Part shown: positions 6,043 through 31,502 of the stretch, piece after piece
Position numbering within the stretch: the stretch's first letter is position 1
How the letters are laid out: each line of letters begins with the position of its first letter
Origin: an uncultured archaeon
GTDB lineage: Archaea > Iainarchaeota > Iainarchaeia > Iainarchaeales > DATDZZ01
DNA length: 32,000 nt
NCBI GenBank assembly: GCA_964373795.1
Contig: CAYJVY010000003.1
Span: 68,798 to 100,797, forward strand
Direction: 5' to 3'
Notes under the pieces: model-generated
The model's database searches: none
What the model was told of the DNA's origin: nothing
What the model saw: the letters and a program-made list of their open reading frames with translations, nothing else
Position numbers and translations under genes: made by a program

Positions 6043-8208
6043 ATGAATGTAGAAGAAATTGTATTAAAATGCAATTCATTTAACGAATTTAATGAAATGC
6101 AGAAAACTGCTTTGCAAAAAGGTTTGTTTGAAAAATCAATGATTGTTTCAAGTCCAACTGCTTCAGGGAAAACAGTTTTAGCAGAATTAACTGCTTTGAA
6201 TTCAATTTTAAACAATAAAGCAAAGGTTGTCTACACTTGTCCTTTGAAGGCTTTAGCTTCAGAGCATTTCACTGACTTTAAAAAAAAATATTCAAAGAAT
6301 TTAAAGATTAAAACAATTATTTCTACTGGAGACTTTGATTCTAGTTCAAGTCATTTAAGTAAATTTGATTTAATTTTTTCAACTTATGAAAAAATTGAGT
6401 CATTAATTAGACATAAATCTTCTTGGCTTTCAAGCATTGGGTTATTAATTGTGGATGAAATTCATGAAATTGATTCAGATAGAGGGCCAACTTTGGAAAT
6501 GCTTGTAACAAAGCTTAGATTAATGAATCCTTCAATGAGGGTTTTAGGTTTAAGTGCCACTATTCCAAATGCAAAAGAATTAAGTGAATGGCTTCAAGCA
6601 ACTTTAATTGAATCAAATTACAGGCCAATTCCTTTAAGTGAAGGAGTTTACTTTAATCAAGAAATAAAGTATTCAAAAAAAAATGAGTTAGTGGAAAAAG
6701 AAAAAGATTCTTTGAATGAATTAATTTTAAATACATTGAAGAAAGAAAAACAAGCACTAGTTTTTTGTAATTCAAGGAAACGCGCAGAAACAGTTGCTAG
6801 AAAAATTTCTCATTTAATTAAAAAACAATTAAATGAAAAACAATTAATTGAATTAAAAAATGAAGCTGAAAAAGTTTTAAATGCATTAGAACAACCTACA
6901 GAGCAATGTAAGAATTTATTTCAATTAATTGAACAAGGAATTGCTTTTCATCATGCAGGTTTAATGCAGGAACAAAGAACAATAATTGAAGAACTATTCA
7001 AGCAAGGAAAATTATTAGCTCTAACTTCTACTCCTACTTTAGCAGCCGGAGTTAATATTCCAGCTAACACAGTAATTATTCCGACAATTTATAGATATGG
7101 AAGATTTGGAATGGAGCCAATAACTGTTCGCGAATTCAAGCAAATGAGTGGAAGAGCTGGCAGGCCAAAATATGATGTTGAAGGAAGAACAATTTTGATT
7201 GCAAAAAATGAAATAGAACAAGAAGAATTAATGCATTCATATGTGAATGGAAAAATTGAAGAAATTACTTCAAAGCTTTCAATTGAACCAATTCTTAGAA
7301 CTCATTTGCTTTCATTAATTGCTTCAAACTTTGTTTTTGACTTGAATTCAATGGAGCAATTCTTTTCTAAAACATTTTATGCAAAACAATTCAAGGATTT
7401 AGCTCATTTGTTTTACAAATTAAATGATGTATTAAAGGAATTAATTGAAATGGATTTTATTCAAACAACTGAAAAAGGATTTAATGCAACAGTTTTAGGG
7501 CAAAGAGTTGCAGAACTATATTTAGATCCAATTACAGCTTTTAATTTAATTCAAGCACTTAAAAATAATAAAATTGGAAAAGAATTAAGCTATTTAATGC
7601 TTTTAAGTGATTCATTTGAGTTATATCCTTTTCCAAGCATTCCAAAATCACGAGAAGGAATTCTTTGGGCTGAATTAAGTGAAGCAAAAAAAGAATTATT
7701 TTTTGATTTAGATAGAAAAATGTTTGAAGACAACTCTATTTTGAATAAATTTTTTTTCTCTCAAATTTTAATGCAATGGTTAAATGAAGTTTCAGAAGAA
7801 AACTTGTTAAAAGAATTCAAAATCCAGCCAGGAATTTTGCGTTCAAAACTAGAAATAATTGACTGGCTGTTGTATTCATCAATTGAATTGGAAAAACTTT
7901 TAGAGCAATCAACTCACTTCAAGCCATTAACTGATTTAAGGCTTAGAGTGAAATACGGAATTAAATCTGAACTACTTTCATTAGTTCAACTTAAAAATAT
8001 TGGAAGAGTTAGGGCAAGGCTTTTATTCAAAAACCATTTGCGAACAATTAGCGATTTAAAGAAAACAGATTTAAATAATTTAAGCAGGATTTTAGGGCCA
8101 AAAATTGCTTTAAATGTAAAACATCAATTAGGCCAAGAAAAAGAAATAAATGAGAAAGAAATTCAAGTAAAACAAGTTGAAGGGCAATCAACTTTGGATG
8201 GGTTTTAA
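6043..8208 (+). CDS. hel308: Hel308/Ski2-like ATP-dependent DNA helicase
   Basis: 721 aa with Walker A SPTASGKT, DEIH box, SAT motif and motif VI QMSGRAGR. It also has winged-helix and ratchet regions and a C-terminal helix-hairpin-helix domain (LKNIGRVRARLL). Confidence 0.9.
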   Translation: MNVEEIVLKCNSFNEFNEMQKTALQKGLFEKSMIVSSPTASGKTVLAELTALNSILNNKAKVVYTCPLKALASEHFTDFKKKYSKNLKIKTIISTGDFDSSSSHLSKFDLIFSTYEKIESLIRHKSSWLSSIGLLIVDEIHEIDSDRGPTLEMLVTKLRLMNPSMRVLGLSATIPNAKELSEWLQATLIESNYRPIPLSEGVYFNQEIKYSKKNELVEKEKDSLNELILNTLKKEKQALVFCNSRKRAETVARKISHLIKKQLNEKQLIELKNEAEKVLNALEQPTEQCKNLFQLIEQGIAFHHAGLMQEQRTIIEELFKQGKLLALTSTPTLAAGVNIPANTVIIPTIYRYGRFGMEPITVREFKQMSGRAGRPKYDVEGRTILIAKNEIEQEELMHSYVNGKIEEITSKLSIEPILRTHLLSLIASNFVFDLNSMEQFFSKTFYAKQFKDLAHLFYKLNDVLKELIEMDFIQTTEKGFNATVLGQRVAELYLDPITAFNLIQALKNNKIGKELSYLMLLSDSFELYPFPSIPKSREGILWAELSEAKKELFFDLDRKMFEDNSILNKFFFSQILMQWLNEVSEENLLKEFKIQPGILRSKLEIIDWLLYSSIELEKLLEQSTHFKPLTDLRLRVKYGIKSELLSLVQLKNIGRVRARLLFKNHLRTISDLKKTDLNNLSRILGPKIALNVKHQLGQEKEINEKEIQVKQVEGQSTLDGF

Positions 8209-9411
8209 TTATTTGTTTACTTCTTTTTCAATTACTTCTCTAATTTTTTTTGCATCTAAATCCAATTTAATGAAACGTGTTTGTCCTTTATATCCTTGTC
8301 CAGAATTAGTTGTAACAATTAATCCATACATTTCTAATTCACTAACATATTGCCTATACCATCTAGAACTTATGGGATTTTCTTGATATCTTTTTGCAAG
8401 AGAAGAATATTCATTGAACACTTCTCCTGAAAAAACTAATTCTTTTTCTTCTTCCCCAGTTATTTTAGTTAAACCGCTTGAACGCATGCTTACATTGGCA
8501 ATTGCAAGTAAAACTAATTGTTCTTGAGTTGGAAGAGTTGAAATCATGTTAAAAATAATTTCTTCTTCAACTTTTTGCTTTGCTTCTAGTACTTGGACTT
8601 CCGAAACTTTTTGCAAAGAATTATTATCTGCTTGTTCTCCTGCTCTAAGTAAAAGCATTACTCCTGTCCTAGCATCTCCAGATTCTTTTGCTGCAATTGC
8701 TGCAGCTAAATTTATTGCTGGTTGTTCAACAGTGTTTTCCTTAAATGCTAGTTTAACTCTTTGTTTTAGTATTTCAGTTAATTCTTCTGCATTATATGGA
8801 GGAAAAACCATTTCATGTTCGCATAAACTGCTTTTAGTTCTAGGATCTAATCTGTCTTTAAACATTAAATTATTTGATACTCCTACAATTGAAATGCTTC
8901 CCTTTCCTATTTCATCGTTTGCTCTTGTAAGAGAATAAATTAATTCATCTAAATCCTTTACCTTGTCTATTTCATCTAAAACAATTATTACATCTCTTTC
9001 TGTTTCCTTCACAAATTCAATTAATTTTTCTAAAACAAATCCAGAACTATATCCTAAAAAGTTTTTATTAGGATAAAACTCGTTAACACATTTCAATAAA
9101 GCCCTGTATTTAGATGAATGGTTTCTGCAATTAACATAACAAGTTTTTATGTTAACCTTATTTTTTTCAGCAAATTCATTTAATTGCGATAAAACAAATT
9201 TAGTTACACTTGTTTTACCAGTTCCTGTTTTACCATATAGAAAAAGATTATTAGGTTTTTTTCTATTTAACACAGTTCCAAGAACTGAAGTAATTTCTTT
9301 TATTTGATTTTCTCTAAAAGGAAGTTCATTTGGAATGTAATGAGGCATTATTAAATTTCTGTCCTTAAAGACTGTTGGTTTTTCTAATTCGGCCTGAAAA
9401 ATATTTTCCAT
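8209..9411 (-). CDS. cdc6: Orc1/Cdc6 replication initiator (AAA+ with C-terminal winged helix)
   Basis: 400 aa with the conserved N-terminal FRENQ region, Walker A GKTGTGKT, Walker B VLDEID, sensor regions and a C-terminal winged-helix region. Its stop codon directly abuts the hel308 stop codon (8206-8208 / 8209-8211). Confidence 0.9.
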   Translation of the reverse strand: MENIFQAELEKPTVFKDRNLIMPHYIPNELPFRENQIKEITSVLGTVLNRKKPNNLFLYGKTGTGKTSVTKFVLSQLNEFAEKNKVNIKTCYVNCRNHSSKYRALLKCVNEFYPNKNFLGYSSGFVLEKLIEFVKETERDVIIVLDEIDKVKDLDELIYSLTRANDEIGKGSISIVGVSNNLMFKDRLDPRTKSSLCEHEMVFPPYNAEELTEILKQRVKLAFKENTVEQPAINLAAAIAAKESGDARTGVMLLLRAGEQADNNSLQKVSEVQVLEAKQKVEEEIIFNMISTLPTQEQLVLLAIANVSMRSSGLTKITGEEEKELVFSGEVFNEYSSLAKRYQENPISSRWYRQYVSELEMYGLIVTTNSGQGYKGQTRFIKLDLDAKKIREVIEKEVNK

Positions 9412-9480: not shown

Positions 9481-12400
9481 TTAGATATTTCTTGGAATTT
9501 TTTTTTGCTCTACTTTTTCTTCTTTTTTTCTTGAATAAAATTTTATTCCTATAATTAAAACAATTAAAATTACTAAAGGGTATAATGCAAGAGGGATTTG
9601 CAAATTTTTCGCATTCTTATTCAAAGAAAGAAGTGAGGTGCCTGCATTTGCATACTTTAATGCATCTAAATATTTTTTTTCTTCCAAGTTTTTTTGAGCT
9701 TCTTCAATTATTTTTTTTGCATCTTCTTTTGGATTTTCTTTTAATAAAAACTCTGCTTGCTTAACTTTACCTATTGCACTATTCTTAATCGAATCTTTTT
9801 TACTTTCTAATTGGCTTTTAATTTCTTGAAGTCTTTTAATTGAATTTTCAATTTCTTTAGCATCTTTTTCATTTGAAGCTATTTCTAAAAATTTGTTTTC
9901 ATTAAAAAGTGATTCAATTTCATTTAACTTGTTAGTATTTATTTTGTTAATGATTTCTTTTGATTCTCTTTTAAAGTAGCTTAATTCTTGCTTGCTTAAA
10001 GGAATATATTTTGCCAATTCATTTAATTCATCTTTACTTAAACCATCGAAAAGATCTTCAAATTCCTGAATTAAGTTTTCAATTTGCCTATTACTTATTA
10101 ATTCATTTAACTGTCTTGCGTTTAAAATAATTTTTTCAGATTTAGATTTTAATTCATTTTTTAAATGATTTTCTAAATTTATTTTTTCTTTTGAAAGCGA
10201 ATTCAATAATTCATTTGCTTCAAAATATTTTTCTTCATTAAACTTGGTTAAAATTTCTTCTTTCATTGAATTAATTTTTTTTTCTTCATTGCTTGGAGGG
10301 TTTTCAAGTTTTGAATTGTTTATTTTTTCAAAAATAGTGTTTAATTCATTTGTTGTGAAAAGATATTTTGCCATTAATTCTTTTTTTATTTTTGGGAAAG
10401 ACTTACTTTGCATTAAACTTTGGATTTCTAAAAGTATTTTCTTTTCTTCAAGAATTTTTTGGTTTAATTCATTTTCTAAAGCTGAGTTAAATTTTTCTTT
10501 TAATTCGTTTAAGTATTGCTTTAATTCAATTGTTTTATCCTTCATATTAGTTTTTTCTAATTCATTTAATTCTTTTTCTAAATAATTAATTTGTTCTAAT
10601 GCTTCTTTTTTTAATGAATTAATTTCAATTAAGCTTTTTTCATAATCTGTATTTTTTTTTGAAAGGTCATTTATCTTTGATTTTAGTTTTTCAAGTTTTG
10701 AGATTTTTTCTTTATTATCTTGAATTTGCATTAACTTATTTAGTTCTTTTAATTCATTTAATGCCTGTTCTTTTACCTCTTTAAAGTCCGATAAAATTAG
10801 TAAATTAACTTCCATTTCAATTTCTTTCTCAACTTTTTCAATTAATTTATCTAAATTTTCAATTTTTTTATATAGTGTTAGAGTTATTTCTTCCTCTTTA
10901 TTCAAGTTATTTAAATTGAATTCAATTTTGTTTGTTGTTTGATTTAATTTAATACTTTTTCCGCTTTCGTTAAATAGCTCTACTGTGATTAGAGTTTCAT
11001 TTAAATTGAATTGATTTAATGAAATAACTGTGTTTTCAATATTTAATGGTAAATTGTTTTTGATCTTTATTTCTTGAACTATTTCAAATTCTTTTTCATT
11101 TAATTTAATAATTTCTTCTTGGGGTAATGACACTTTTATTGGGTTTAATATATAATAGTAAATTGAAATTATTTGATTATCTTTTGGTTTTTCAATTAAA
11201 AAACTTATTTCATTTTCTTTTAACCCGAACGGAATTTTTTTGTTTTCAGAATAAATACTTACTTCATTAAGTAAATCGATTGGTTGAATTAACTCTGTTG
11301 AAACAACTGCTTTTTCTATTTCTCTTAATAGATTTATTTTAATTTCTTTTAAGATTAGCGCTTTTTTTTCACTTGCATTTAAAACAATTGTTTTGATTTC
11401 TGAAACATTTATCTCATTAAATTCTTTCACTGTTAACTCTGTTTGATTTAAGGGCAATTCGTTTAATGTAACCTCAATTTTATTGTTTGAAATGCTGGTT
11501 TTAATTATATTTTGAGTTTTACTTACAATTTCTGTTTCATTTACTTTATTTAATGGAATTGAAATATTTATTTCTTCATTTATCTGTTCATTAAAAGGGT
11601 TTTTTACAACATATTTTGTTAAGACTTCAATTTTTTTATCAGTTTTAAATAACTCGTTTGATAAACTTTGTATTTCTATATTTTCTTCTAAAAATATTTT
11701 TAGTTCTTGAATTAATTCAATTCTTATTTCATTAAATAGTTTAAGTAACTTATTTTTTATTTCAAGTTTGTTTTTAATAATTTCTTCAACTTCATTGCTT
11801 GAAAATAATTCATTGAAATAATTTATTTGAGTTTTAAATTTTAATGCTTTTGAAGTTGAAAGTGTTCCAAGTAATTCTAAATAATGGTTTGTTTTTTTAA
11901 GCAAGTCTTTTAATTCACTTAAATCAAAACTTGAATATGCATAAAACGTAATGTCCTTTTTCAGTTCAATACAATAATTTTTTCCATTAAAATATTCTTT
12001 ATTTTTTTGAATTAATTTTAAGTTATTCAATCTTTCAAAAAATATGTTTTTTATTTCAGGATTTTTTAATAATTCGTTAACTTCATTTAAGCATTTTTCA
12101 AATCCTTCTTTTTCGTTTACTTCAAATTCTGTGAATTGATTTATAGCTTTTTTGAAGAGTTTAAAATCTTCTACTATTGGTTTGCATTGAATTAATTTTT
12201 CTTTTTCAGTTTTCGTTTCATTGAATTTAATTATTTTGCTTGTTAATTTGTTTTTTAATTCAATTACTTCTATTCGGTCAATTTTTTCTTTATTTATTTC
12301 ATTACGGATAAAGTTAGCTCTTGAATTGCATAAATCAATTAATTCATCTGTTAATTCATTTGAGTAAAAAAGAGTTTTATCATTTAATAACTTTAATTCA

Positions 12401-13623
12401 CTGTTAATGTTTTTTAATTCAATTACTTTTTTTCCATTTGAAATATTGTTGAAATAATTCTTGTTTAACAATTTGTTTAACTGTTTTTTTAATTCGTCCA
12501 ATTTTTCAAAATTGTTTTGCTTAAATTGATTTATTTCATTCAACTCAAATTTTTGTGTTTGAATTTCTTTTCCTTCCTGCAATAACGAGATTAGTGAAGA
12601 AATGAATTCTTCATTAAAGCTTTGATAACTATTTGAATCTAATGCATTTAATTGTGTTTGAATTGATTCAATTAAGAACTTGTTTTCATTAATTAACTCA
12701 TTTGTTTTTTCTTTTAAATTTTTCTTATTTTTAGCAATTGTTTTAATTAAATCAATAAATTTTTCAGTAGCGGAATTACTTGGAGAGGCTAATGAATCAA
12801 ATAAACTGAAAAATTCTGATGGATTTGCTTTTCCTAGTAAAATGTTTCCTTGAACTGTTTTATCTAAAAAATTAATTTTATGTACTAATGCAAAAGCTGA
12901 GTTTTTAATTATTGCAGCAAAAGGATTATTCTTTAATAGAATTGAAAAAATTGTGTTATCTATTTCCGCGAACACGTCAATTAAAGTGAATTCTTTTACA
13001 GTTCTAGTTGAATCAATTGCTTGAATTAATTTATTTAATTCATTTGATTTGAAAAAATATAATCCAACAAATGTTTTAGAATTTTTATTTCCATTGAATA
13101 AATCATTTAAATTATTAATTAAGTCTAAATAAGAGTCAAAAATTGGTTCTTCTTTTATTAAATTAATTTCCTGTAATTCAAGTTCTTGAATCTCTAAAAC
13201 AATTATTTCTAATGCAATTAAATTTAATTTATTTAATTCTTCAATTGCTTTATTTAAATATGAAATTGATTCGTTTGCATGAAAGGAAAGATTTGAAACA
13301 AATCTTTGGTTGCATTCTTTGTTTATTTCGTTTAAACTTGTTCTAATCTTGTTAAAATAAAACCAAGAAAATGCCAAAGAATTTTTATACAAACCAATTT
13401 TTTGATTTAATGCTAAGGAAAACTCGCTTAAATCATTTTCAGGCAATAATTCATTAACCTTATTAAAACAGGCTTCTTTTGATTCACAAAAAGGAATGGA
13501 TGTTGAAGGAAAAGAAGTTAAACTCAAACAAACTCTTCTCTGAGAAATACTTAACTCATTTACTGGATCAATGCAGCCAATCAAGAAAAGAAAAGACAGA
13601 AATAAAAAAATCTTTAGCTTCAT
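9481..13623 (-). CDS. Giant (1380 aa) coiled-coil surface protein with an N-terminal lipobox-like signal peptide and a C-terminal TM anchor; function unknown
   Basis: Uninterrupted 4.1-kb ORF. The N-terminus MKLKIFLFLSFLFLIGC resembles a lipoprotein signal (LIGC). Long K/E/N/L/I-rich heptad-like stretches flank a beta-strand-like central part (about aa 670-930). The C-terminus has a hydrophobic helix LALYPLVILIVLIIGIKFY followed by a basic tail. Confidence 0.8.
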   Translation of the reverse strand: MKLKIFLFLSFLFLIGCIDPVNELSISQRRVCLSLTSFPSTSIPFCESKEACFNKVNELLPENDLSEFSLALNQKIGLYKNSLAFSWFYFNKIRTSLNEINKECNQRFVSNLSFHANESISYLNKAIEELNKLNLIALEIIVLEIQELELQEINLIKEEPIFDSYLDLINNLNDLFNGNKNSKTFVGLYFFKSNELNKLIQAIDSTRTVKEFTLIDVFAEIDNTIFSILLKNNPFAAIIKNSAFALVHKINFLDKTVQGNILLGKANPSEFFSLFDSLASPSNSATEKFIDLIKTIAKNKKNLKEKTNELINENKFLIESIQTQLNALDSNSYQSFNEEFISSLISLLQEGKEIQTQKFELNEINQFKQNNFEKLDELKKQLNKLLNKNYFNNISNGKKVIELKNINSELKLLNDKTLFYSNELTDELIDLCNSRANFIRNEINKEKIDRIEVIELKNKLTSKIIKFNETKTEKEKLIQCKPIVEDFKLFKKAINQFTEFEVNEKEGFEKCLNEVNELLKNPEIKNIFFERLNNLKLIQKNKEYFNGKNYCIELKKDITFYAYSSFDLSELKDLLKKTNHYLELLGTLSTSKALKFKTQINYFNELFSSNEVEEIIKNKLEIKNKLLKLFNEIRIELIQELKIFLEENIEIQSLSNELFKTDKKIEVLTKYVVKNPFNEQINEEINISIPLNKVNETEIVSKTQNIIKTSISNNKIEVTLNELPLNQTELTVKEFNEINVSEIKTIVLNASEKKALILKEIKINLLREIEKAVVSTELIQPIDLLNEVSIYSENKKIPFGLKENEISFLIEKPKDNQIISIYYYILNPIKVSLPQEEIIKLNEKEFEIVQEIKIKNNLPLNIENTVISLNQFNLNETLITVELFNESGKSIKLNQTTNKIEFNLNNLNKEEEITLTLYKKIENLDKLIEKVEKEIEMEVNLLILSDFKEVKEQALNELKELNKLMQIQDNKEKISKLEKLKSKINDLSKKNTDYEKSLIEINSLKKEALEQINYLEKELNELEKTNMKDKTIELKQYLNELKEKFNSALENELNQKILEEKKILLEIQSLMQSKSFPKIKKELMAKYLFTTNELNTIFEKINNSKLENPPSNEEKKINSMKEEILTKFNEEKYFEANELLNSLSKEKINLENHLKNELKSKSEKIILNARQLNELISNRQIENLIQEFEDLFDGLSKDELNELAKYIPLSKQELSYFKRESKEIINKINTNKLNEIESLFNENKFLEIASNEKDAKEIENSIKRLQEIKSQLESKKDSIKNSAIGKVKQAEFLLKENPKEDAKKIIEEAQKNLEEKKYLDALKYANAGTSLLSLNKNAKNLQIPLALYPLVILIVLIIGIKFYSRKKEEKVEQKKIPRNI

Positions 13624-14944: not shown

Positions 14945-16901
14945 AAAACATGTTCTTAATAACTGTTGTTGAAAGGAAAAACCCTGACATCATTAAAAGA
15001 GCAATTATTTCAAGCACAGTAAAAATGCTGTAAGAATCCTTAATAAAAATTTCAGTAAACAAATTATTCACTATTGTTAAAGGAAGAATTGAAGTAAACA
15101 ATTTAATTAACGGGGCAATAAAATCTAAAGGAAAAATTATTCCACTTAAAAAAATCATTGGAATAACTAATAACAAAGATCCAAGAATTGCTGTTGACTC
15201 ATTTTTAGTAAAATTAGAAATAAATAACCCTAAAGAAACAAATGTAAGAGCCGCTAAACCAACTCCAATTAATCCAATAAAAATTTTCGTAATAGTAGGA
15301 GTAATCCCAAATCCAATAAAGTCATATCCAAATACTGGAAAAGGTAAATTAATTTTAGTAAAAGCATAAACCAAAATAATTAATGCAATTACAAAAGCAA
15401 TCAATATTTGTCCTAACACTTTTCCAAACACTAATTTTAATTGAGTAGTAGAACTTAACCTCATTCTCAAAAAAGCTCCTTGCTTGTCTTCAGTAATAGC
15501 GGAAAAAGAACTTAAAAGCAAGCAAGTTAAAAGCAATACAATTGACAATACAATTGGAGTTAAAATTCCTAAAACAGTTACATCTTTATACAATAACTGT
15601 TCTTTTACAATTATTGGTTGAGCAATAAATTTTGGATCCCTATCACTTAACTGTTTTAGAATGTTTGAAAAATCCTGAATTAATGTTTTCGAGTCCTGCA
15701 ATCTTAAAGTTAAAGCATCCTTGGAAGTTCTACCATCGCTCACTAAAGCTCTAGTGCTATCAATTGTTTCAGTTAAAGCTCCTGCTTCCTTATTTAAATC
15801 ACTTAAATCGTTTTTAAAAGTATCAATAGTGAATCCTAAAGTTGTTAACCTATTTTTTCCATCCTGAACCCGAATATTTGTGCTAGTTAAAACATTTTGT
15901 AACTCAATTAACTTGTCATCAGCTTGCCTTATTTTGGTTTTCGCATTTCTTAAATCAATTAAAGCTGACTGCACTTTTGCTAAATTCTTATTATTTTCTC
16001 GCTGCAAATCCCTAATAGTGGCTAAAGTATTTGGCTCGTTTTTAAAAGTCTGCTCAGCATTATTTAAAGTATTCCTAATGTCAAGCAAAGTAATTTCAAG
16101 GTCTTCTAAATCAGTAATCGATGAATCAACTTTCCCTTCATAAACAAATAATTCATTTCTAGCATTAGAGGTTTCAGTTTGAAGTTTTTGAACATCGGTT
16201 TCAGTTTTAGTTAAATCCGCTTTAAAATCATTTACAGTTGAATCAACATTTGAAACATTTTGACTTTGAAAATCCAAAATTCTATTAATTTTATCAGCAT
16301 CAATTCTATTAACATTGCTTTCCAATTGATTTAATTTGTCTCCACTTTTATTTAATTCATCTAAATAACCATCAATCTTTCCAACTTCTCCACTTAAATT
16401 TTGATTAACCTGATCAAGTTTTCCAAGCATTAAAGAAATAATTTCCTTAGTAGTGTTAACTTCAATTATTTTAATTACATTCTGAATCTGGCTTTTAATT
16501 ATTTTTGAAGTAGCAAAATTAGAGTTATCCAATAAAACATCAATCTTTATTTGCTCGGCCTTAGTTGCTTTATCGTTAATAACTAATCCAACAAATACAA
16601 ACTGTTTCTTCAAATCATTTTCAACACACTCTCTAGTAGCACATAAAGGCTTTAACACTTCAACTCTAGGATTTTTCTCCAACAAAGAAACAAATTCATT
16701 CACTTGTTCTTGACTTGCGCCTTCAATTTGTTCAGGAACTAAAACCGAAACAGAAACTTTATCCACTCCTTGACTGCTTCCAAAAGCCAATGCAAGAATC
16801 AAAGTAATCAAAATAGGATAAGCAACAATCAACCAAATAGTCATTTTCCTTGTACGAATTAAATCAAATTCCTTTAAAACAATGCTTAAAATTCGCCTCA
16901 T
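14931..16901 (-). CDS. ABC-2 type transporter permease with a large coiled-coil extracytoplasmic insertion (YhgE/Pip-like architecture)
   Basis: 656 aa: one N-terminal TM, about 390 aa of Q/N/D/T/L-rich coiled-coil-like sequence, then a C-terminal 5-TM ABC-2 membrane domain. The start overlaps the ATPase stop by 4 nt (ATGA at 16898-16901). Confidence 0.8.
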   Translation of the reverse strand: MRRILSIVLKEFDLIRTRKMTIWLIVAYPILITLILALAFGSSQGVDKVSVSVLVPEQIEGASQEQVNEFVSLLEKNPRVEVLKPLCATRECVENDLKKQFVFVGLVINDKATKAEQIKIDVLLDNSNFATSKIIKSQIQNVIKIIEVNTTKEIISLMLGKLDQVNQNLSGEVGKIDGYLDELNKSGDKLNQLESNVNRIDADKINRILDFQSQNVSNVDSTVNDFKADLTKTETDVQKLQTETSNARNELFVYEGKVDSSITDLEDLEITLLDIRNTLNNAEQTFKNEPNTLATIRDLQRENNKNLAKVQSALIDLRNAKTKIRQADDKLIELQNVLTSTNIRVQDGKNRLTTLGFTIDTFKNDLSDLNKEAGALTETIDSTRALVSDGRTSKDALTLRLQDSKTLIQDFSNILKQLSDRDPKFIAQPIIVKEQLLYKDVTVLGILTPIVLSIVLLLTCLLLSSFSAITEDKQGAFLRMRLSSTTQLKLVFGKVLGQILIAFVIALIILVYAFTKINLPFPVFGYDFIGFGITPTITKIFIGLIGVGLAALTFVSLGLFISNFTKNESTAILGSLLLVIPMIFLSGIIFPLDFIAPLIKLFTSILPLTIVNNLFTEIFIKDSYSIFTVLEIIALLMMSGFFLSTTVIKNMFFSSG

Positions 16902-17872
16902 GTTTTTTCTCCAGCAGTTTTTTCAAAATCCCTAATCTTCTTTCCAGTCAAATTAATGAATACATCCTCTAATTCTGGTTCACGAATATGAGAAGACTTA
17001 ATTTCATACTTGGATTTTCTAATAAAATCAGTTATCTGAGTAACCTTAGACAAAGAAACCTCTTTCTGAAAAGAAATAATTAATTGATTCCCTAAAATTT
17101 TTCCATCATCAAATCCGACAACTACCTTCAAAGAATCCAAAAGCAATTCATCAAAAGGTTTATCCAAATTCAATATAACAATTTTCTTTCCGCCATATTC
17201 TTGAATTAATTTCTCAGGCGAGCCTTCAACCAAAATCTTTCCCTTGTTCATTATAGCAATTCTATCACACAATTCTTGAGCTTCATCCATGTAATGAGTA
17301 GTTAAAATCATTGACTTTCCATGCTTTTTCAATTCCTTTATTTTATCCCAAAACATTGCTCTAACACTTGGATCTAGTCCAACAGTTGGTTCATCCAAAA
17401 AAATTATTTTCGGATCATGAATCAAAGCCAAACCAATATTAACAAGCCTCTTATACCCTCCAGATAAATGCTCAATTTTTCTTTCCTCAAACTGCTTCAA
17501 ATTCAGCCATTCAAGCAAAAACTCTACTCGTTCAATTAATTTATTATTAGGAATATCATACAACCTGCCAAAAAACAAAAAATTTTGCTTAACAGTAAAC
17601 CCCTGATAACAAGCAATTTCTTGCGGAACAACTCCAATAAATTTATTAAAAAACTTGAAAAAAAATCCAACCTTTTTACCCAAAACATAAATATTCCCAG
17701 AAGAAGGCGAACTCAAACCACAAGCAATTTTAGCCAAAGTAGACTTGCCTGCTCCGTTAGGGCCAAGCAAACCATAAATCTCATTCTCATTTAAATAAAA
17801 ATTAGAACTCTCTAAAGCAACAAACGAGCCAAACTTTTTTGAAACATTTTCAATTCTTAAAACTTCAGTCAT
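16898..17872 (-). CDS. ABC transporter ATP-binding protein (ABC-2/DrrA-like)
   Basis: 324 aa with Walker A GPNGAGKST, signature LSGGYKR, Walker B IIFLDEPT and the H-loop THYMDE. A GGTGA Shine-Dalgarno-like motif lies 4 nt upstream, at the edge of the GC-rich island. Confidence 0.9.
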   Translation of the reverse strand: MTEVLRIENVSKKFGSFVALESSNFYLNENEIYGLLGPNGAGKSTLAKIACGLSSPSSGNIYVLGKKVGFFFKFFNKFIGVVPQEIACYQGFTVKQNFLFFGRLYDIPNNKLIERVEFLLEWLNLKQFEERKIEHLSGGYKRLVNIGLALIHDPKIIFLDEPTVGLDPSVRAMFWDKIKELKKHGKSMILTTHYMDEAQELCDRIAIMNKGKILVEGSPEKLIQEYGGKKIVILNLDKPFDELLLDSLKVVVGFDDGKILGNQLIISFQKEVSLSKVTQITDFIRKSKYEIKSSHIREPELEDVFINLTGKKIRDFEKTAGEKT

Positions 17873-17876
17873 TCTC

Positions 17877-18036
17877 TCACCCGTCGTTCAGCCGTGCAAG
17901 GTTCAGCCCTTGAAGCGCCGTTCAGCCGGCGAGGCTGAGTGCCCACGTGGGCATCGCGCTTGCCGCGCGAGACTACAGCTGAAGGGTCACGTGACCCCTC
18001 GCACTCGACGGGCGTGACCGCGAGCAAGGCTGAACA
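17877..18036 (+). repeat. GC-rich mosaic repeat island, copy A (reference orientation)
   Basis: Hand count gives 102 G+C in 150 nt (68%) for 17881-18030, against 19 in 60 (32%) for 17821-17880. GTTCAGCC occurs three times (17886, 17901, 17920) and its complement GGCTGAAC once (18028). Perfect palindromes are GCCCACGTGGGC (17941-17952) and GGGTCACGTGACCC (17984-17997). There is a hairpin TCGCGC-TTGCC-GCGCGA (17954-17970). A 31-nt block (17943-17973) matches 30739-30769 with 3 mismatches. Confidence 0.8.
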
Positions 18037-18145
18037 CAATGCTTTGCATTGAACAACATTCCAGCTAATTAAATTATTCACGCTAAAAGTGTGAAACAAT
18101 TATGTACTACTTTTACTAAAGCTTATTGTTAACCATGTTTGGAAA

Positions 18146-18444: not shown

Positions 18445-19488
18445 TCAATTTTTTGCAATTGACAGGCTATCAAAATCAATTTTCAAATCCATGTCTTTCA
18501 AATCAGGGCGGACAAGCAGGCAAACCCTTGCAGTCTCAAATTCATCCCTGAAAAAATACCCGCTTTCACTAGCAATTTTTTTCGCAAATTCTCGAACATC
18601 GCCCATGGAAGGCATTTTATCTTCTTCTAATTTCAATCTACTTGGTCCAACCCAAGAATAACCTTTAACTTCAACAAACATTGGATTTCCTCTTTTAATT
18701 ATTGGTCCCCATTCTTTTTCATAAGACATATTTTTTCCTTTAACAGCAGTAACTCGAATAACAGTTCTAGTATTCATTTTAGCCATTACATCCAATGACT
18801 TCATCATTTTCTCCCAAGAATCACTTTCTTGAGGTCTATTTAATTCAATATGCACTTGCTTGTTAGGAGAATCAAAACTCATATACAACTGAGTAGGCAA
18901 AGGAATTTTCTCCAATACCTCTGGTCTAGAACCATTAGTAACTAAAAAAGTAGTAATCCCTTTATCATGATATGCTTGAATTAATTCAGGTAACTGCTTA
19001 TATAAAGTGGGCTCTCCACTCAAAGAAATTGCAACATGCTTAGGAGTATGACTTGCAAGCCATTTCTCTTTATCCACATACTGGCTTCCGCCCAAACCAG
19101 AAAGCTGTTGATTCTGCCTCTCAATTGATTCCTCAACCAATTCACTTACATCGTCTTTATACTCGATTTCGCGATTAGGAATAACTGTCCTCCAACAATA
19201 ATCACAACCATAATTACACACAGCAGTAATAGGAGTCATTTGAATACATTGATGACTTTGAATGCCGTAAAACTTCTGCTTATAACAAGCAGTTCCGCCA
19301 GAAATAGAACTCCTAGTATAATGACAAGTCTTCACAGCTCCTAAAGCTCCAACTCTAGCATATTGCTGTCTTCTCAAAACCTTCTCCAAACCCTTAGGCA
19401 AGGTCTGAGGATCAGGCAAAACCTTTTTAGAATCCGAATTACTCTTATCTGAAATCTGAATTAATTCACTCAATTTCTCACCATTCAA
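18445..19488 (-). CDS. taw1: tRNA 4-demethylwyosine synthase Taw1/TYW1 (radical SAM)
   Basis: 347 aa with the radical-SAM cluster CNYGCDYCW and an upstream Cys cluster (CHYTRSSISGGTACYKQ). It is collinear with archaeal Taw1. The track start is TTG at 19488. An in-frame TTG at 19473 preceded by GGTGAG is an alternative start. Confidence 0.85.
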   Translation of the reverse strand: MNGEKLSELIQISDKSNSDSKKVLPDPQTLPKGLEKVLRRQQYARVGALGAVKTCHYTRSSISGGTACYKQKFYGIQSHQCIQMTPITAVCNYGCDYCWRTVIPNREIEYKDDVSELVEESIERQNQQLSGLGGSQYVDKEKWLASHTPKHVAISLSGEPTLYKQLPELIQAYHDKGITTFLVTNGSRPEVLEKIPLPTQLYMSFDSPNKQVHIELNRPQESDSWEKMMKSLDVMAKMNTRTVIRVTAVKGKNMSYEKEWGPIIKRGNPMFVEVKGYSWVGPSRLKLEEDKMPSMGDVREFAKKIASESGYFFRDEFETARVCLLVRPDLKDMDLKIDFDSLSIAKN

Positions 19489-19542
19489 TCGCCGTCTCGC
19501 GCGGCGTGCGCGAGCAACTATTTGGTCGGCTTCAAAAAGCCT
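19489..19542 (-). repeat. GC-rich repeat island, short copy D (inverted relative to copy A)
   Basis: It begins immediately next to the taw1 start codon. GCCGTCTCGCGCGGC (19491-19505) is the reverse complement of GCCGCGCAAGACGGC (30759-30773) with one mismatch. A 7-bp hairpin is CTCGCGC-GGCGT-GCGCGAG (19496-19514). A second small hairpin is GGCTT-CAAA-AAGCC (19528-19541). Confidence 0.6.
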
Positions 19543-24559: not shown

Positions 24560-24572
24560 TTCAGCCTTGCTC
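24560..24572 (-). repeat. 13-nt remnant of the GC-rich repeat family (copy F)
   Basis: TTCAGCCTTGCTC is the exact reverse complement of GAGCAAGGCTGAA at 18022-18034, the right edge of copy A. It lies in the intergenic region just upstream of the vapBC-1 promoter. Confidence 0.45.
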
Positions 24573-24625: not shown

Positions 24626-24835
24626 GTGTCTACTCTTACAGTTGAATTCAAAGGCGTTACAGATACTGTTCTAAATGCCTTGATTGAAAAAGGCTATGCA
24701 AAAACTAAGGCAGAAGCTTTAAGATATGCATTAATTCACTTAGGTGAAGAACTTGGATTGGTTGAACATAAGTTTCATGCCAAAACTGAGGAATACGCGT
24801 ATAAGGAAATAAAAGAACGATTTAGAAGGAATTAA
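24626..24835 (+). CDS. Putative antitoxin (small DNA-binding protein, possibly ribbon-helix-helix) paired with a PIN toxin
   Basis: 69 aa with a GTG start after GAGGTGG. A short N-terminal strand is followed by helices (TLTVEF...VLNALIEKGYAKTKAEALRYALIHLG). The stop lies 1 nt before the PIN gene start. The assignment rests mainly on context. Confidence 0.6.
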   Translation: MSTLTVEFKGVTDTVLNALIEKGYAKTKAEALRYALIHLGEELGLVEHKFHAKTEEYAYKEIKERFRRN

Positions 24836-24836
24836 A

Positions 24837-25217
24837 ATGTATATTGATTCAGATATTTTTTTTGCCTTAATTAAATTAAATGATAGGCATGCAGAATTTG
24901 CTAAAACAGTTTTTTCAAGAAATGATAAAAAATACACTTCTGTCTTAACCTTGGTAGAATTGGAGATAATTGTTAAGCGAGAAATAGACAATCATTTAAG
25001 CAAAAATATTTTTGAAAGATTCAAAGAGTTATTTCCAGATGTTGAAATAAAGAACTTAGATGAAAAAACTTTTTCAAAATCTTTAGAGTTAAGAAAAAAA
25101 TATAGTTTGGGTGTATTTGATTCAATTCATGCAGCAGTTGCTTTAAAATACGATAAAAGAATTGCTTCAACTGATCAAAGCTATGTAAAAATAAAAGAAT
25201 TGAAAATCATTAAATAA
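24837..25217 (+). CDS. vapC: PIN-domain ribonuclease toxin (VapC-like)
   Basis: 126 aa with acidic PIN residues in the expected order: YIDSD near the N-terminus, LVELEI, FDSIHAAVA and STDQSY. Confidence 0.8.
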   Translation: MYIDSDIFFALIKLNDRHAEFAKTVFSRNDKKYTSVLTLVELEIIVKREIDNHLSKNIFERFKELFPDVEIKNLDEKTFSKSLELRKKYSLGVFDSIHAAVALKYDKRIASTDQSYVKIKELKIIK

Positions 25218-25367: not shown

Positions 25368-25502
25368 GGGAGACTTGTGCTTGCCACGCGTTAGCTCGTA
25401 TTCGTTGGTCGTTCTAGTCACCTCGCCGGCTGCGACGTCTCGTGCGTCGAGCACGGGGGCCGACGTCGGCCTTCAGCCTCGCCGGCTGAACCGCGTTTAC
25501 GA
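25368..25502 (-). repeat. GC-rich mosaic repeat island, copy C (right part inverted relative to copy A)
   Basis: The reverse complement of 25467-25494 reads CGCGGTTCAGCCGGCGAGGCTGAAGGCC. It matches 30712-30738 (CGCGGTTCAGCCCGCGAAGCTGAAGGG) and 17917-17940. Other elements are the perfect 14-bp palindrome GGCCGACGTCGGCC (25458-25471), the hairpin CGTGC-GTCGA-GCACG (25441-25455) and a CCTCGCCGGCTG duplication (25421 and 25477). The left part GTGCTTGCCACGCG...GCTCGTATTCG resembles the right end of copy B in direct orientation, so the island is mosaic. Confidence 0.8.
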
Positions 25503-25618
25503 CAATTGCTTTAAAAACCTTTTTTTCTTCAAGTAATTAAAATTTTGTTGAAAATCAACGGTTTTGAAATGCTGTTTTTAGGAGTTTATAAAAATTTTGA
25601 ATTTTTTGAGGGGGAGCT

Positions 25619-30673: not shown

Positions 30674-30707
30674 GCAAGAATAAACGAAAAACTACTTTAA
30701 ATTCATT

Positions 30708-30818
30708 TGCTCGCGGTTCAGCCCGCGAAGCTGAAGGGTCACGTGGGCATTGCGCTTGCCGCGCAAGACGGCAGCTGGAGGCCGACGTGGGCATCGCGCT
30801 TGCTGTATTCGGATACGC
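30708..30818 (+). repeat. GC-rich mosaic repeat island, copy B (same orientation as copy A)
   Basis: There are two tandem units with a 44-nt period: ACGTGGGCAT at 30741 and 30785. Unit 1 (30730-30773) and unit 2 (30774-30805) share GCTG-A/G-AGG...ACGTGGGCAT-T/C-GCGCTTGC. The hairpins are TTCAGC-CCGCGAA-GCTGAA (30717-30735) and TTGCGC-TTGCC-GCGCAA (30750-30766). Confidence 0.8.
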
Positions 30819-30847
30819 TTTTCAACGAAATCTAGTAAACCTTTAAT

Positions 30848-30908: not shown

Positions 30909-31109
30909 GTGGTTCACACCGAGGTAATAGTAAAAAAGTGGGGTAATTCTTTTGGATTAATAATCCCTAGCGAGGTTGCAAAAAGTTTGGCGTTAAAAGA
31001 AGGTAAAAAAATTGATTTAGATTTAACTGCAAAAAAAAAGATCAGCGGCTTTGGATTAGCTAAAGGAGCAAAACCGTTCAAAAGAGAGCATGATGATCGA
31101 GAGTTTTGA
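30909..31109 (+). CDS. vapB: AbrB/SpoVT-fold antitoxin (VapB/MazE-like)
   Basis: 66 aa. VKKWGNSFGLIIPSEVAKSLALKEGKKIDL is a classic SpoVT-AbrB swapped-hairpin motif. It has a GTG start and lies directly upstream of a PIN gene. Confidence 0.8.
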   Translation: MVHTEVIVKKWGNSFGLIIPSEVAKSLALKEGKKIDLDLTAKKKISGFGLAKGAKPFKREHDDREF

Positions 31110-31118
31110 GGAATTAAA

Positions 31119-31502
31119 ATGAAAGTAATTGTTGACAGCTATGCATGGGTTGAGTACTTTCTTTCCTCTGAAAAAGGGGTGAAGGCTAAAAAAATAATTG
31201 AATCAGAAAAGAATGAATTAATTACTCCAAGCATTGTTTTAGCTGAAGTAAAGTTTTGGTCTTTGCAAGAAAAAAAAGAATTTCAAAAATTTTATGAAGT
31301 TATTAGAGCTGATTCTGAGATAATTGAAGTATTTTCAAATGACTGGCTTGAAGCAGCTGAAATAAAGCATGTTAAAAGAAAAACAATTCAAAATATTGGT
31401 TTAGTTGACTGCTTACTTATTGTAAAACAACAAGAATTAAAAACAAAAATTTTAACAGGAGACCAACACTTCAAAACAATTTCAAACACAATATTGCTAT
31501 GA
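31119..31502 (+). CDS. vapC: PIN-domain ribonuclease toxin VapC
   Basis: 127 aa with PIN acidic residues in order: VIVDSYAW, LAEV, LVDCLLI and TGDQHF. A GAGGA Shine-Dalgarno motif lies upstream. Confidence 0.85.
   Translation: MKVIVDSYAWVEYFLSSEKGVKAKKIIESEKNELITPSIVLAEVKFWSLQEKKEFQKFYEVIRADSEIIEVFSNDWLEAAEIKHVKRKTIQNIGLVDCLLIVKQQELKTKILTGDQHFKTISNTILL

Follow-up and report, generated by a model that had tools for sequence, protein, structure and literature searches.

GC-rich intergenic hairpin arrays in an AT-rich DPANN-type archaeon, candidate repeats of the REP or mitochondrial GC-cluster kind

By examining a 32,000-nt stretch of an uncultured archaeal genome (contig CAYJVY010000003.1, positions 68,798 to 100,797; this whole stretch is hereafter the window), we identified a family of GC-rich islands that are non-coding mosaic arrays of short (15-25 nt) GC-rich hairpin modules. 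The islands considered are designated I1 (50-135), I2 (17877-18036), I3 (19486-19517), I4 (25394-25502) and I5 (30708-30818), with I2 to I5 making up the family. We estimate at roughly 55% the probability that these arrays are non-autonomous palindromic repeats, similar in kind to the repetitive extragenic palindromes (REP) and bacterial interspersed mosaic elements (BIME) or to mitochondrial GC clusters, which spread at the DNA level and are passively transcribed in untranslated regions. A DNA-level repeat family is favoured because the islands are dispersed, strictly intergenic, mosaic and variably present, occur in any gene context and beside unrelated genes, and match no RNA family.

RESULTS AND DISCUSSION

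Four related islands in AT-rich intergenic DNA

The window has a G+C content of 29.3%, with intergenic DNA making up ~9% of its length. When G+C peaks were located by a 40-nt sliding window, they fell at 50-111, 17870-18048, 19471-19537, 25394-25509 and 30703-30820, and one further, weaker peak was found within a gene. A preliminary description of this DNA had named five GC-rich stretches that interrupt no open reading frame (ORF), and both points hold: the G+C content is 57% for 59-135, 66% for 17877-18036, 61% for 19489-19542, 64% for 25368-25502 and 66% for 30708-30818, and every island base lies within the intergenic 9% of the window. Its hand counts, 102/150 G+C for 17881-18030 and 19/60 in the flanks, are also exact. 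Overall, the islands have ~65% G+C versus 24% for the remaining intergenic DNA.

The same description took all five stretches to be related, which is true of four of them. I2, I4 and I5 have a common core of ~60 nt and align locally with scores of 47-81 versus shuffled maxima of 22-28, while I3 has a module of 20-21 nt in common with I2 and I5. As I1 gave no score above shuffled controls in local alignments to every other island, we left it out, and by sequence similarity the family has four members in the window (I2-I5). Three specific matches previously proposed between islands were recovered. Positions 17943-17973 and 30739-30769 are identical at 28/31 positions, the block CGC-S-GTTCAGCC-S-GCGA-R-GCTGA-R occurs three times (17916-17939 on the plus strand, 30712-30735 on the plus strand and 25472-25495 on the minus strand) with none expected in shuffles, and the inverse 15-mer match between I3 and I5 is right, with its register having been off by one base. 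Similarly, the 19-nt block GTTCAGCCSGCGARGCTGA is found three times (17920 plus, 30716 plus and 25473 minus), with no occurrence in 100 shuffles. The copies are not identical but have diverged from one another.

Conserved loops on variable stems

Among the perfect GC-rich hairpins of at least 5 bp in the window, 14/17 lie within I2-I5. Their stems are 5-7 bp long and their loops 4-7 nt, with the loops TTCAGC/GCTGAA and ACGT being conserved. Three stems close the TTCAGC loop (CGCCG/CGGCG and CAAGG/CCTTG in I2, CGCGG/CCGCG in I5), and another three close the ACGT loop (TGCCC/GGGCA, GGGTC/GACCC and GGCCG/CGGCC).

The largest array is I2 (17877-18036, 66% G+C), in which an outer GTTCAGCC (17886-17893) pairs with a terminal GGCTGAAC (18028-18035) as an 8-bp terminal inverted repeat, which in minimum free energy folds encloses all of the array. 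The GTTCAGCC 8-mer has 6 copies versus 0.35 expected. Reading along the plus strand between these ends, we found the hairpin CAAGG-TTCAGC-CCTTG (17897-17912), whose loop is that of module Y on a wholly different stem; module Y itself (CGCCG TTCAGC CGGCG A GGCTGA G, 17916-17939), which contains two overlapping, mutually exclusive hairpins; the palindromic hairpin TGCCC-ACGT-GGGCA (17940-17953); the hairpin TCGCGC-TTGCC-GCGCGA (17954-17970), with two compensated pairs across the I4 and I5 copies; and a second palindromic hairpin, GGGTC-ACGT-GACCC (17984-17997), with GCTGAAG (17977-17983) just before it. The terminal GGCTGAAC follows a CGCGAGCAA motif, which is found again at the end of I3 and, in inverted form, at the beginning of I5. 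The fold of I2 has a z-score of -3.3 on both strands, matched by at most one of 200 shuffles, and leaves the adjacent Shine-Dalgarno sequence unpaired in the prediction.

The other islands are built from the same kinds of parts. I3 (19486-19517) is a single 32-nt module X, reading CGCCG TCTCGCG CGGCG T GCGCGAG on the plus strand. I4 (25394-25502), inverted with respect to I2 and I5, carries module Y on the minus strand (25472-25495), the palindrome GGCCG-ACGT-CGGCC (25458-25471) and a set of overlapping hairpins (25433-25455). In I5 (30708-30818), module Y (30712-30735) is followed by a hybrid palindrome, in which a GGGTC-type left arm is joined to a GGGCA-type right arm, and by a partly duplicated unit of ~44 nt. 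A 44-nt unit had been suggested before, but TRF calls no tandem repeat of that length, and the duplication is partial (~26/31).

Modules Y and X follow a recurring design, a-W-a'-n-W', that yields two overlapping hairpins unable to form together. We considered an H-type pseudoknot for these modules, but the connecting loops would have only 0-2 nt, and as this geometry fails, we take the two hairpins to be alternatives that exclude each other. Among 51 distinct hairpins, drawn from the window and from the second genome described below, the complement of the loop is found in the flank 22 times versus ~6 expected.

Two features of the window stand apart from these arrays. I1, the first stretch of the preliminary description (50-135, 57% G+C), lies immediately 3' of an SppA-like gene; its predicted plus-strand structure is a single long, imperfect hairpin, and its fold z-scores are -0.7 and -1.2. 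The 13-mer TTCAGCCTTGCTC (24560-24572, plus strand) is, as previously noted, the exact inverse of 18022-18034; it might be a solo copy of the I2 end lying inverted upstream of a VapBC-like gene pair, with a rough chance probability of ~0.1.

Support from independent assemblies and an empty site

Arrays of this composition in an AT-rich contig could in principle be assembly artefacts or contaminating GC-rich fragments joined to it, a doubt already raised in the preliminary description. Independent assemblies answer this in part. In Logan contigs from three other runs (ERR3478686, ERR4904390 and ERR4904391) that are 99.8-100% identical to the window, I1, I3 and I5 are spanned completely, with I3 in contig L047 and I5 identical in L037 and L038 from two other sequencing runs. 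Both edges of I2 (17873-17925 and 17989-18036) are present in L001 and L047, and the left half of I4, to 25450, is in L050. The centre of I2 (17926-17988) and the right half of I4 (25451-25502) come from the source assembly only, which is what an artefact would have in its favour, with contigs L001, L047 and L050 ending inside I2 and I4 at the shared core. These breaks can be accounted for by the tendency of repeats to break short-read graphs, and they suggest that more, and closer, copies exist elsewhere in the genome. Given also the divergence between the copies and the presence of the same modules in another archaeal genome and in JGI metagenome contigs, we regard an artefact as very unlikely.

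A comparison with a relative provides one filled and one empty site. Logan contig L040 (ERR14788038, 27% G+C), whose TYW1 is 73% identical, aligns with the region upstream of the TYW1 gene in the window, with the AT-rich promoter region, a native hairpin (GGCTNTTTGAAGC), the Shine-Dalgarno sequence and the start codon all being conserved. At the same leader position it does not have the 32 nt of the I3 module, TTGCTCGCGCACGCCGCGCGAGACGGCGATTG. The third island of the preliminary description (19489-19542) can thus be divided: its family part is the 32-nt module at 19486-19517, while the adjacent GGCTTTTTGAAGCC hairpin belongs to the native leader and is also found in the relative. The alignment indicates that the difference at I3 is probably one insertion or deletion of exactly one module. 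The left flank of I3 ends in AG, and its right end does not. For further empty sites, we found no relatives of the ABC ATPase or the pyruvate kinase with more than 54% identity; in relatives at ~50% identity (39-47% G+C), the same genes have no islands of this kind nearby.

The same modules in a second archaeal genome

In a scan that covered one genome per species, we found the 19-mer in five contigs of SMAG_U8205, a metagenome-assembled genome (MAG) of a soil archaeon with ~34% G+C in which modules of 19-27 nt recur; elsewhere the scan gave only isolated chance matches, in bacteria of high G+C content. A metagenome scan added only two JGI contigs, nearly identical to SMAG_U8205. Module Y is the same there over 19-22 nt, and module X is 24/27 identical to I3. 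These modules, together with at least 10 other hairpin types, form intergenic arrays of 60-350 nt in varying combinations, and the module order differs among I2, I4, I5 and the SMAG_U8205 arrays. Modules within an array are mostly co-oriented, with module X occurring in either orientation relative to module Y. One hairpin type of SMAG_U8205 keeps an A-NRGA-T loop over nine different stems. The arrays begin after AT-rich DNA, and several are bounded by a 13-nt direct repeat, CCTGGTGCCTAAC, followed by TTTT.

The arrays are found upstream of an L21e-RpoF operon, downstream of the topoisomerase VI-A and SerRS genes, directly after a tRNA-Ala gene and between convergent genes, in either orientation to the genes. 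No gene is common to the window and the SMAG_U8205 loci.

Several other observations were made at these loci. In contig L027 (6574-7941), two arrays enclose a free-standing LAGLIDADG endonuclease ORF (6866-7528) and a tRNA gene; both arrays are bounded by CCTGGTGCCTAAC, giving four copies within 1.4 kb. At 7562-7675 of this contig is an apparent tRNA-Lys(UUU) gene, uncalled by ARAGORN, with an insertion of ~40 nt between the D arm and the anticodon arm that is probably an intron at a non-canonical position. In contig L003 (5808-7922), the topoisomerase VI subunit A gene carries a LAGLIDADG-domain intein, and a hairpin array abuts its 3' end. ARAGORN also calls tRNA-Leu(taa) within arrays (L003 5731-5810 and L031 3677-3748), but these have D arms of 2-3 bp and no T-loop consensus, and we rejected them as false calls due to adjacent hairpins.

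Searches for known families

The islands had been described as neither rRNA, tRNA, RNase P nor signal recognition particle RNA, and neither Rfam nor ARAGORN gives a credible match to the contrary. Rfam 15 has no match at the gathering score, and at E<=10 the sole island match is chrB-a, with 24.5 bits versus a cut-off of 43.9 bits; ARAGORN finds no tRNAs in the window. A tRNA-derived or split tRNA origin was rejected on the basis of the TTCAGC loop, which has 6 nt and no A58, and a kink-turn or K-loop for L7Ae was rejected because the second GA is missing from the loop. CRISPR arrays were likewise dismissed, as TRF calls no array in any island and GTTCAGCC copies are 15 and 19 nt apart, in hairpin loops. 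The ORF across I2 had already been doubted for its odd composition; it encodes 76 aa, has no Pfam family match and is spurious. In the collections searched, no viral, plasmid or phage match was found. In the literature that we searched, nothing of this type is described for DPANN or other archaea; one general survey tool does list archaeal intergenic palindromes, which are only loosely defined (PMC12306157).

Host and gene context

Proteins encoded in the window are those of archaeal housekeeping, including CDP-archaeol synthase (CarS), SecDF, a NOG1-type GTPase, a Hel308-like helicase, Orc1/Cdc6 and TYW1, accompanied by an H+-pyrophosphatase, pyruvate kinase, an ABC-2 transporter and two VapBC-like pairs. 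Beyond the same strain, their best relatives have only ~50% identity and carry the labels Diapherotrites, Micrarchaeota or Woesearchaeota, so that the host appears to be a deep-branching DPANN-type archaeon.

The genes adjacent to the islands (ABC transporter, TYW1, H+-pyrophosphatase and pyruvate kinase) are functionally unrelated. The ABC-transporter ATPase gene (16898-17872, minus strand) has its Shine-Dalgarno sequence, GGGTGAG, at 17882-17876 and its ATG at 17872, and I3 lies between the TYW1 promoter region and the Shine-Dalgarno sequence, 3 nt upstream of GGTGAG. Because I2 and I3 abut Shine-Dalgarno sequences, we place both inside 5' leaders, and from this arrangement I2 must, as far as the sequence tells, lie within the leader of the ABC ATPase gene. 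The TTG at 19473 is the likely TYW1 start, not the mechanical ORF start (TTG at 19488) inside the inserted module, since it is aligned with the ATG of the relative and follows GGTGAG. I5 ends 34 nt upstream of the pyruvate kinase ATG (30673, minus strand), and I4 ends 119 nt upstream of the H+-pyrophosphatase ATG (25622). We considered an orientation rule relative to genes and rejected it as inconsistent once I3 and the SMAG_U8205 arrays are included.

Both VapBC-like pairs (24626-25217 and 30909-31502) directly adjoin islands, I4 and I5 respectively, and the 13-nt copy at 24560-24572 lies ahead of the first pair as well. The arrangement may be accidental, or insertion hot spots may be common to the islands and these mobile cassettes.

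Such neighbours bring up a further explanation, namely that the islands are protein-binding or recombination sites acting at the DNA level, such as attC-like, Xer/dif-like or origin-recognition sites or nucleoid-protein arrays. Palindromes with CACGTG or GACGTC cores do resemble the sites of dimeric DNA-binding proteins, the VapBC-like cassettes adjoin I4, I5 and the 13-nt remnant, and the window contains an Orc1/Cdc6 gene; the islands, however, are at least 8 kb from that gene and do not flank an AT-rich unwinding element. Integron attC sites have inverted ends (R'' RYYYAAC ... R' GTTRRRY), are acted on by the IntI integrase and belong to arrays of promoterless cassettes. The boundary repeat CCTGGTGCCTAAC of SMAG_U8205 contains GCCTAAC, matching the RYYYAAC half, but these 13-nt repeats are direct, not inverted as R''/R' are, and are absent from the window. 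The ends of I2, GTTCAGCC...GGCTGAAC, stand in the opposite order to RYYYAAC...GTTRRRY with no fit to GTTRRRY, and the neighbours are mostly housekeeping genes in mixed orientation instead of promoterless cassettes. With no integrase or recombinase in the window or its flanks, we regard DNA sites of this kind as improbable.

Next to the Orc1/Cdc6 gene (8209-9411), we also observed a highly AT-rich ORF of 1380 aa (9481-13623) with low-identity internal repeats and no Pfam domain.

Selected signals or mobile repeats

The main rival to a DNA-level repeat family is that the modules are functional structured RNA signals, either hairpin loops read by an RNA-binding protein or nuclease or stand-alone small RNAs, which are kept by selection and not by mobility. 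A reiterated structured RNA had also been named as an alternative in the preliminary description. Variable stems on a fixed loop are suggestive here, with four in the window for GCTGAA/TTCAGC, three for ACGT and nine in SMAG_U8205 for A-NRGA-T, as are modules of 22-27 nt that hardly differ between two genomes whose G+C content is not the same. The overlapping alternative hairpins, at ~3x the expected frequency, are reminiscent of RNA switches, and the SMAG_U8205 arrays resemble a transcription unit in being preceded by AT-rich DNA and ending in TTTT. The placement of I2 and I3 within 5' leaders and the fold of I2, better than all or nearly all shuffles, point the same way. Set against these are the lack of a common function among the downstream genes, the SMAG_U8205 arrays lying in both orientations to genes and between convergent genes, the absence of I3 at the same site in the relative, and the mosaic, variable content of the arrays. 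Nor is there a credible Rfam match even at E<=10. As perfect palindromes, most of the hairpins fold equally well on either strand, and the wobble count for a strand call (5 G.U, or G.T in DNA, versus 2 A.C) is uninformative, with no strand preference. On balance, we consider RNA signals of this type rather unlikely.

Several of our results nonetheless weigh against DNA-level repeats. The conserved loops on variable stems, along with near-identical 22-27 nt modules in two genomes of different G+C content, also fit a selected, protein-recognised signal. I2, I4 and I5 have the same orientation to the downstream gene, a point also in favour of RNA signals, although n=3 is not significant and I3 is ambiguous. 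The smaller islands fold no better than shuffles of the same composition, with z-scores of -0.5 to -1.8 for I4 and I5. At the I3 empty site there is no evident target-site duplication, and this filled-versus-empty comparison is of one site only, equally explained by a deletion in the relative. Pfam searches of the window ORFs and precomputed Pfam annotations in 15 kb of flanks gave no Y1_Tnp/RAYT, IS200-type or other transposase and no integrase, and the 15 kb of flanks contain no islands beyond the four arrays in 32 kb.

It is also conceivable, if somewhat doubtful, that the modules serve an undescribed archaeal system as its recognition units, in which fixed loops (GCUGAA/UUCAGC, ACGU and, in the second genome, A-NRGA-U) on free stems, many of them next to a complement of the loop itself, would be read by a dedicated protein. 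This protein may be a new hairpin-specific transposase or nuclease by which the modules spread from one DPANN lineage to another, or a factor that binds or processes RNA and for which the modules serve as portable mRNA signals. In either case, the near identity of 22-27 nt modules across two genomes would reflect the specificity of that protein.

If the islands are instead DNA-level repeats, as we favour, modules of ~25-32 nt would enter AT-rich intergenic DNA by an enzyme that we did not find in the searches above, and arrays would then grow and reshuffle through local duplication and recombination between modules. Stem complementarity could be kept by selection for folding or by hairpin-templated correction. 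Because the spacers are short, the arrays would probably be co-transcribed in 5' or 3' untranslated regions, where closed stem-loop domains may form without occupying the ribosome-binding site, with a possible effect on the mRNA.

DPANN genomes are small, streamlined and AT-rich, and in the window GC-rich arrays take up most of the length of four of the largest spacers. Maintaining such arrays in the face of AT-biased mutation must be costly. Should these be selfish repeats, elements of the REP or GC-cluster type would also colonise reduced archaeal genomes, raising the question of what moves them without a transposase in sight. Should they be selected signals, they would represent a portable RNA or DNA recognition code common to at least two lineages. 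In practice, the arrays break short-read assemblies and give false ORF and tRNA calls.

Comparison with known repeat systems

GC-rich noncoding RNA (ncRNA) genes in AT-rich archaea are the principle behind GC-island screens for ncRNAs, and they resemble the islands in their sharp intergenic G+C peaks and stable predicted structure. The islands, however, are repeated and mosaic, have no Rfam family and no fixed length or ends, and are variable at an orthologous site. Miniature inverted-repeat transposable elements are likewise short, non-autonomous and intergenic, and I2 is enclosed between the arms of an 8-bp terminal inverted repeat (GTTCAGCC/GGCTGAAC). This terminal repeat is found in I2 only, and there is neither a target-site duplication at I3 nor a related autonomous insertion sequence in the available DNA; the copies also differ in which modules they contain, and not through point changes away from a master copy.

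REPs are imperfect palindromes of 20-40 nt, extragenic and present in tens to hundreds of copies per genome, which are mobilised by RAYT (a Y1 transposase) and are combined in BIMEs. The preliminary description proposed them as the closest analogy, and this stands as far as a related, non-coding intergenic family with hairpin and mosaic anatomy is concerned. Both consist of short, imperfect stem-loop palindromes that are strictly extragenic and GC-richer than their surroundings, and in both these would form clustered mosaic arrays co-transcribed in untranslated regions. The likeness does not extend to the conserved GTAG/CGTC head or to alternating orientation. GTAG precedes one hairpin in I2 only, with the homologous positions reading GCCG in I5 and CGAC in I4, and the modules here are mostly co-oriented, whereas REPs within a BIME alternate. 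We saw no RAYT or IS200-type gene in 48 kb, and the islands differ further in having many hairpin types with common loops instead of common stems, frequent overlapping alternative hairpins and an archaeal host. Membership in REP proper is therefore not supported.

The GC clusters of yeast mitochondrial DNA, GC-rich hairpins in intergenic positions that show presence/absence differences, merger and shuffling (PMC4478555), differ from the islands in belonging to an organelle and not to a cellular archaeal chromosome. There is no sequence similarity, so that the relation is one of analogy only, and I3 has no AG target-site duplication. In other respects the islands resemble clusters such as GC42 (PMC4478555): both are GC-rich palindromic hairpins, mostly intergenic, in a very AT-rich genome, their presence differs between related genomes (here at one site, I3 versus L040), their stems are constrained, and composites arise by merger or shuffling, as seen here in the hybrid palindrome of I5 and the differing module orders. 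GC clusters also have no known encoded enzyme. Related hairpin elements of fungal and sponge mitochondria can be grouped with them as analogues. By this analogy, the pattern observed in the window appears to fit yeast mitochondrial GC clusters even more closely than it does the REP/BIME type.

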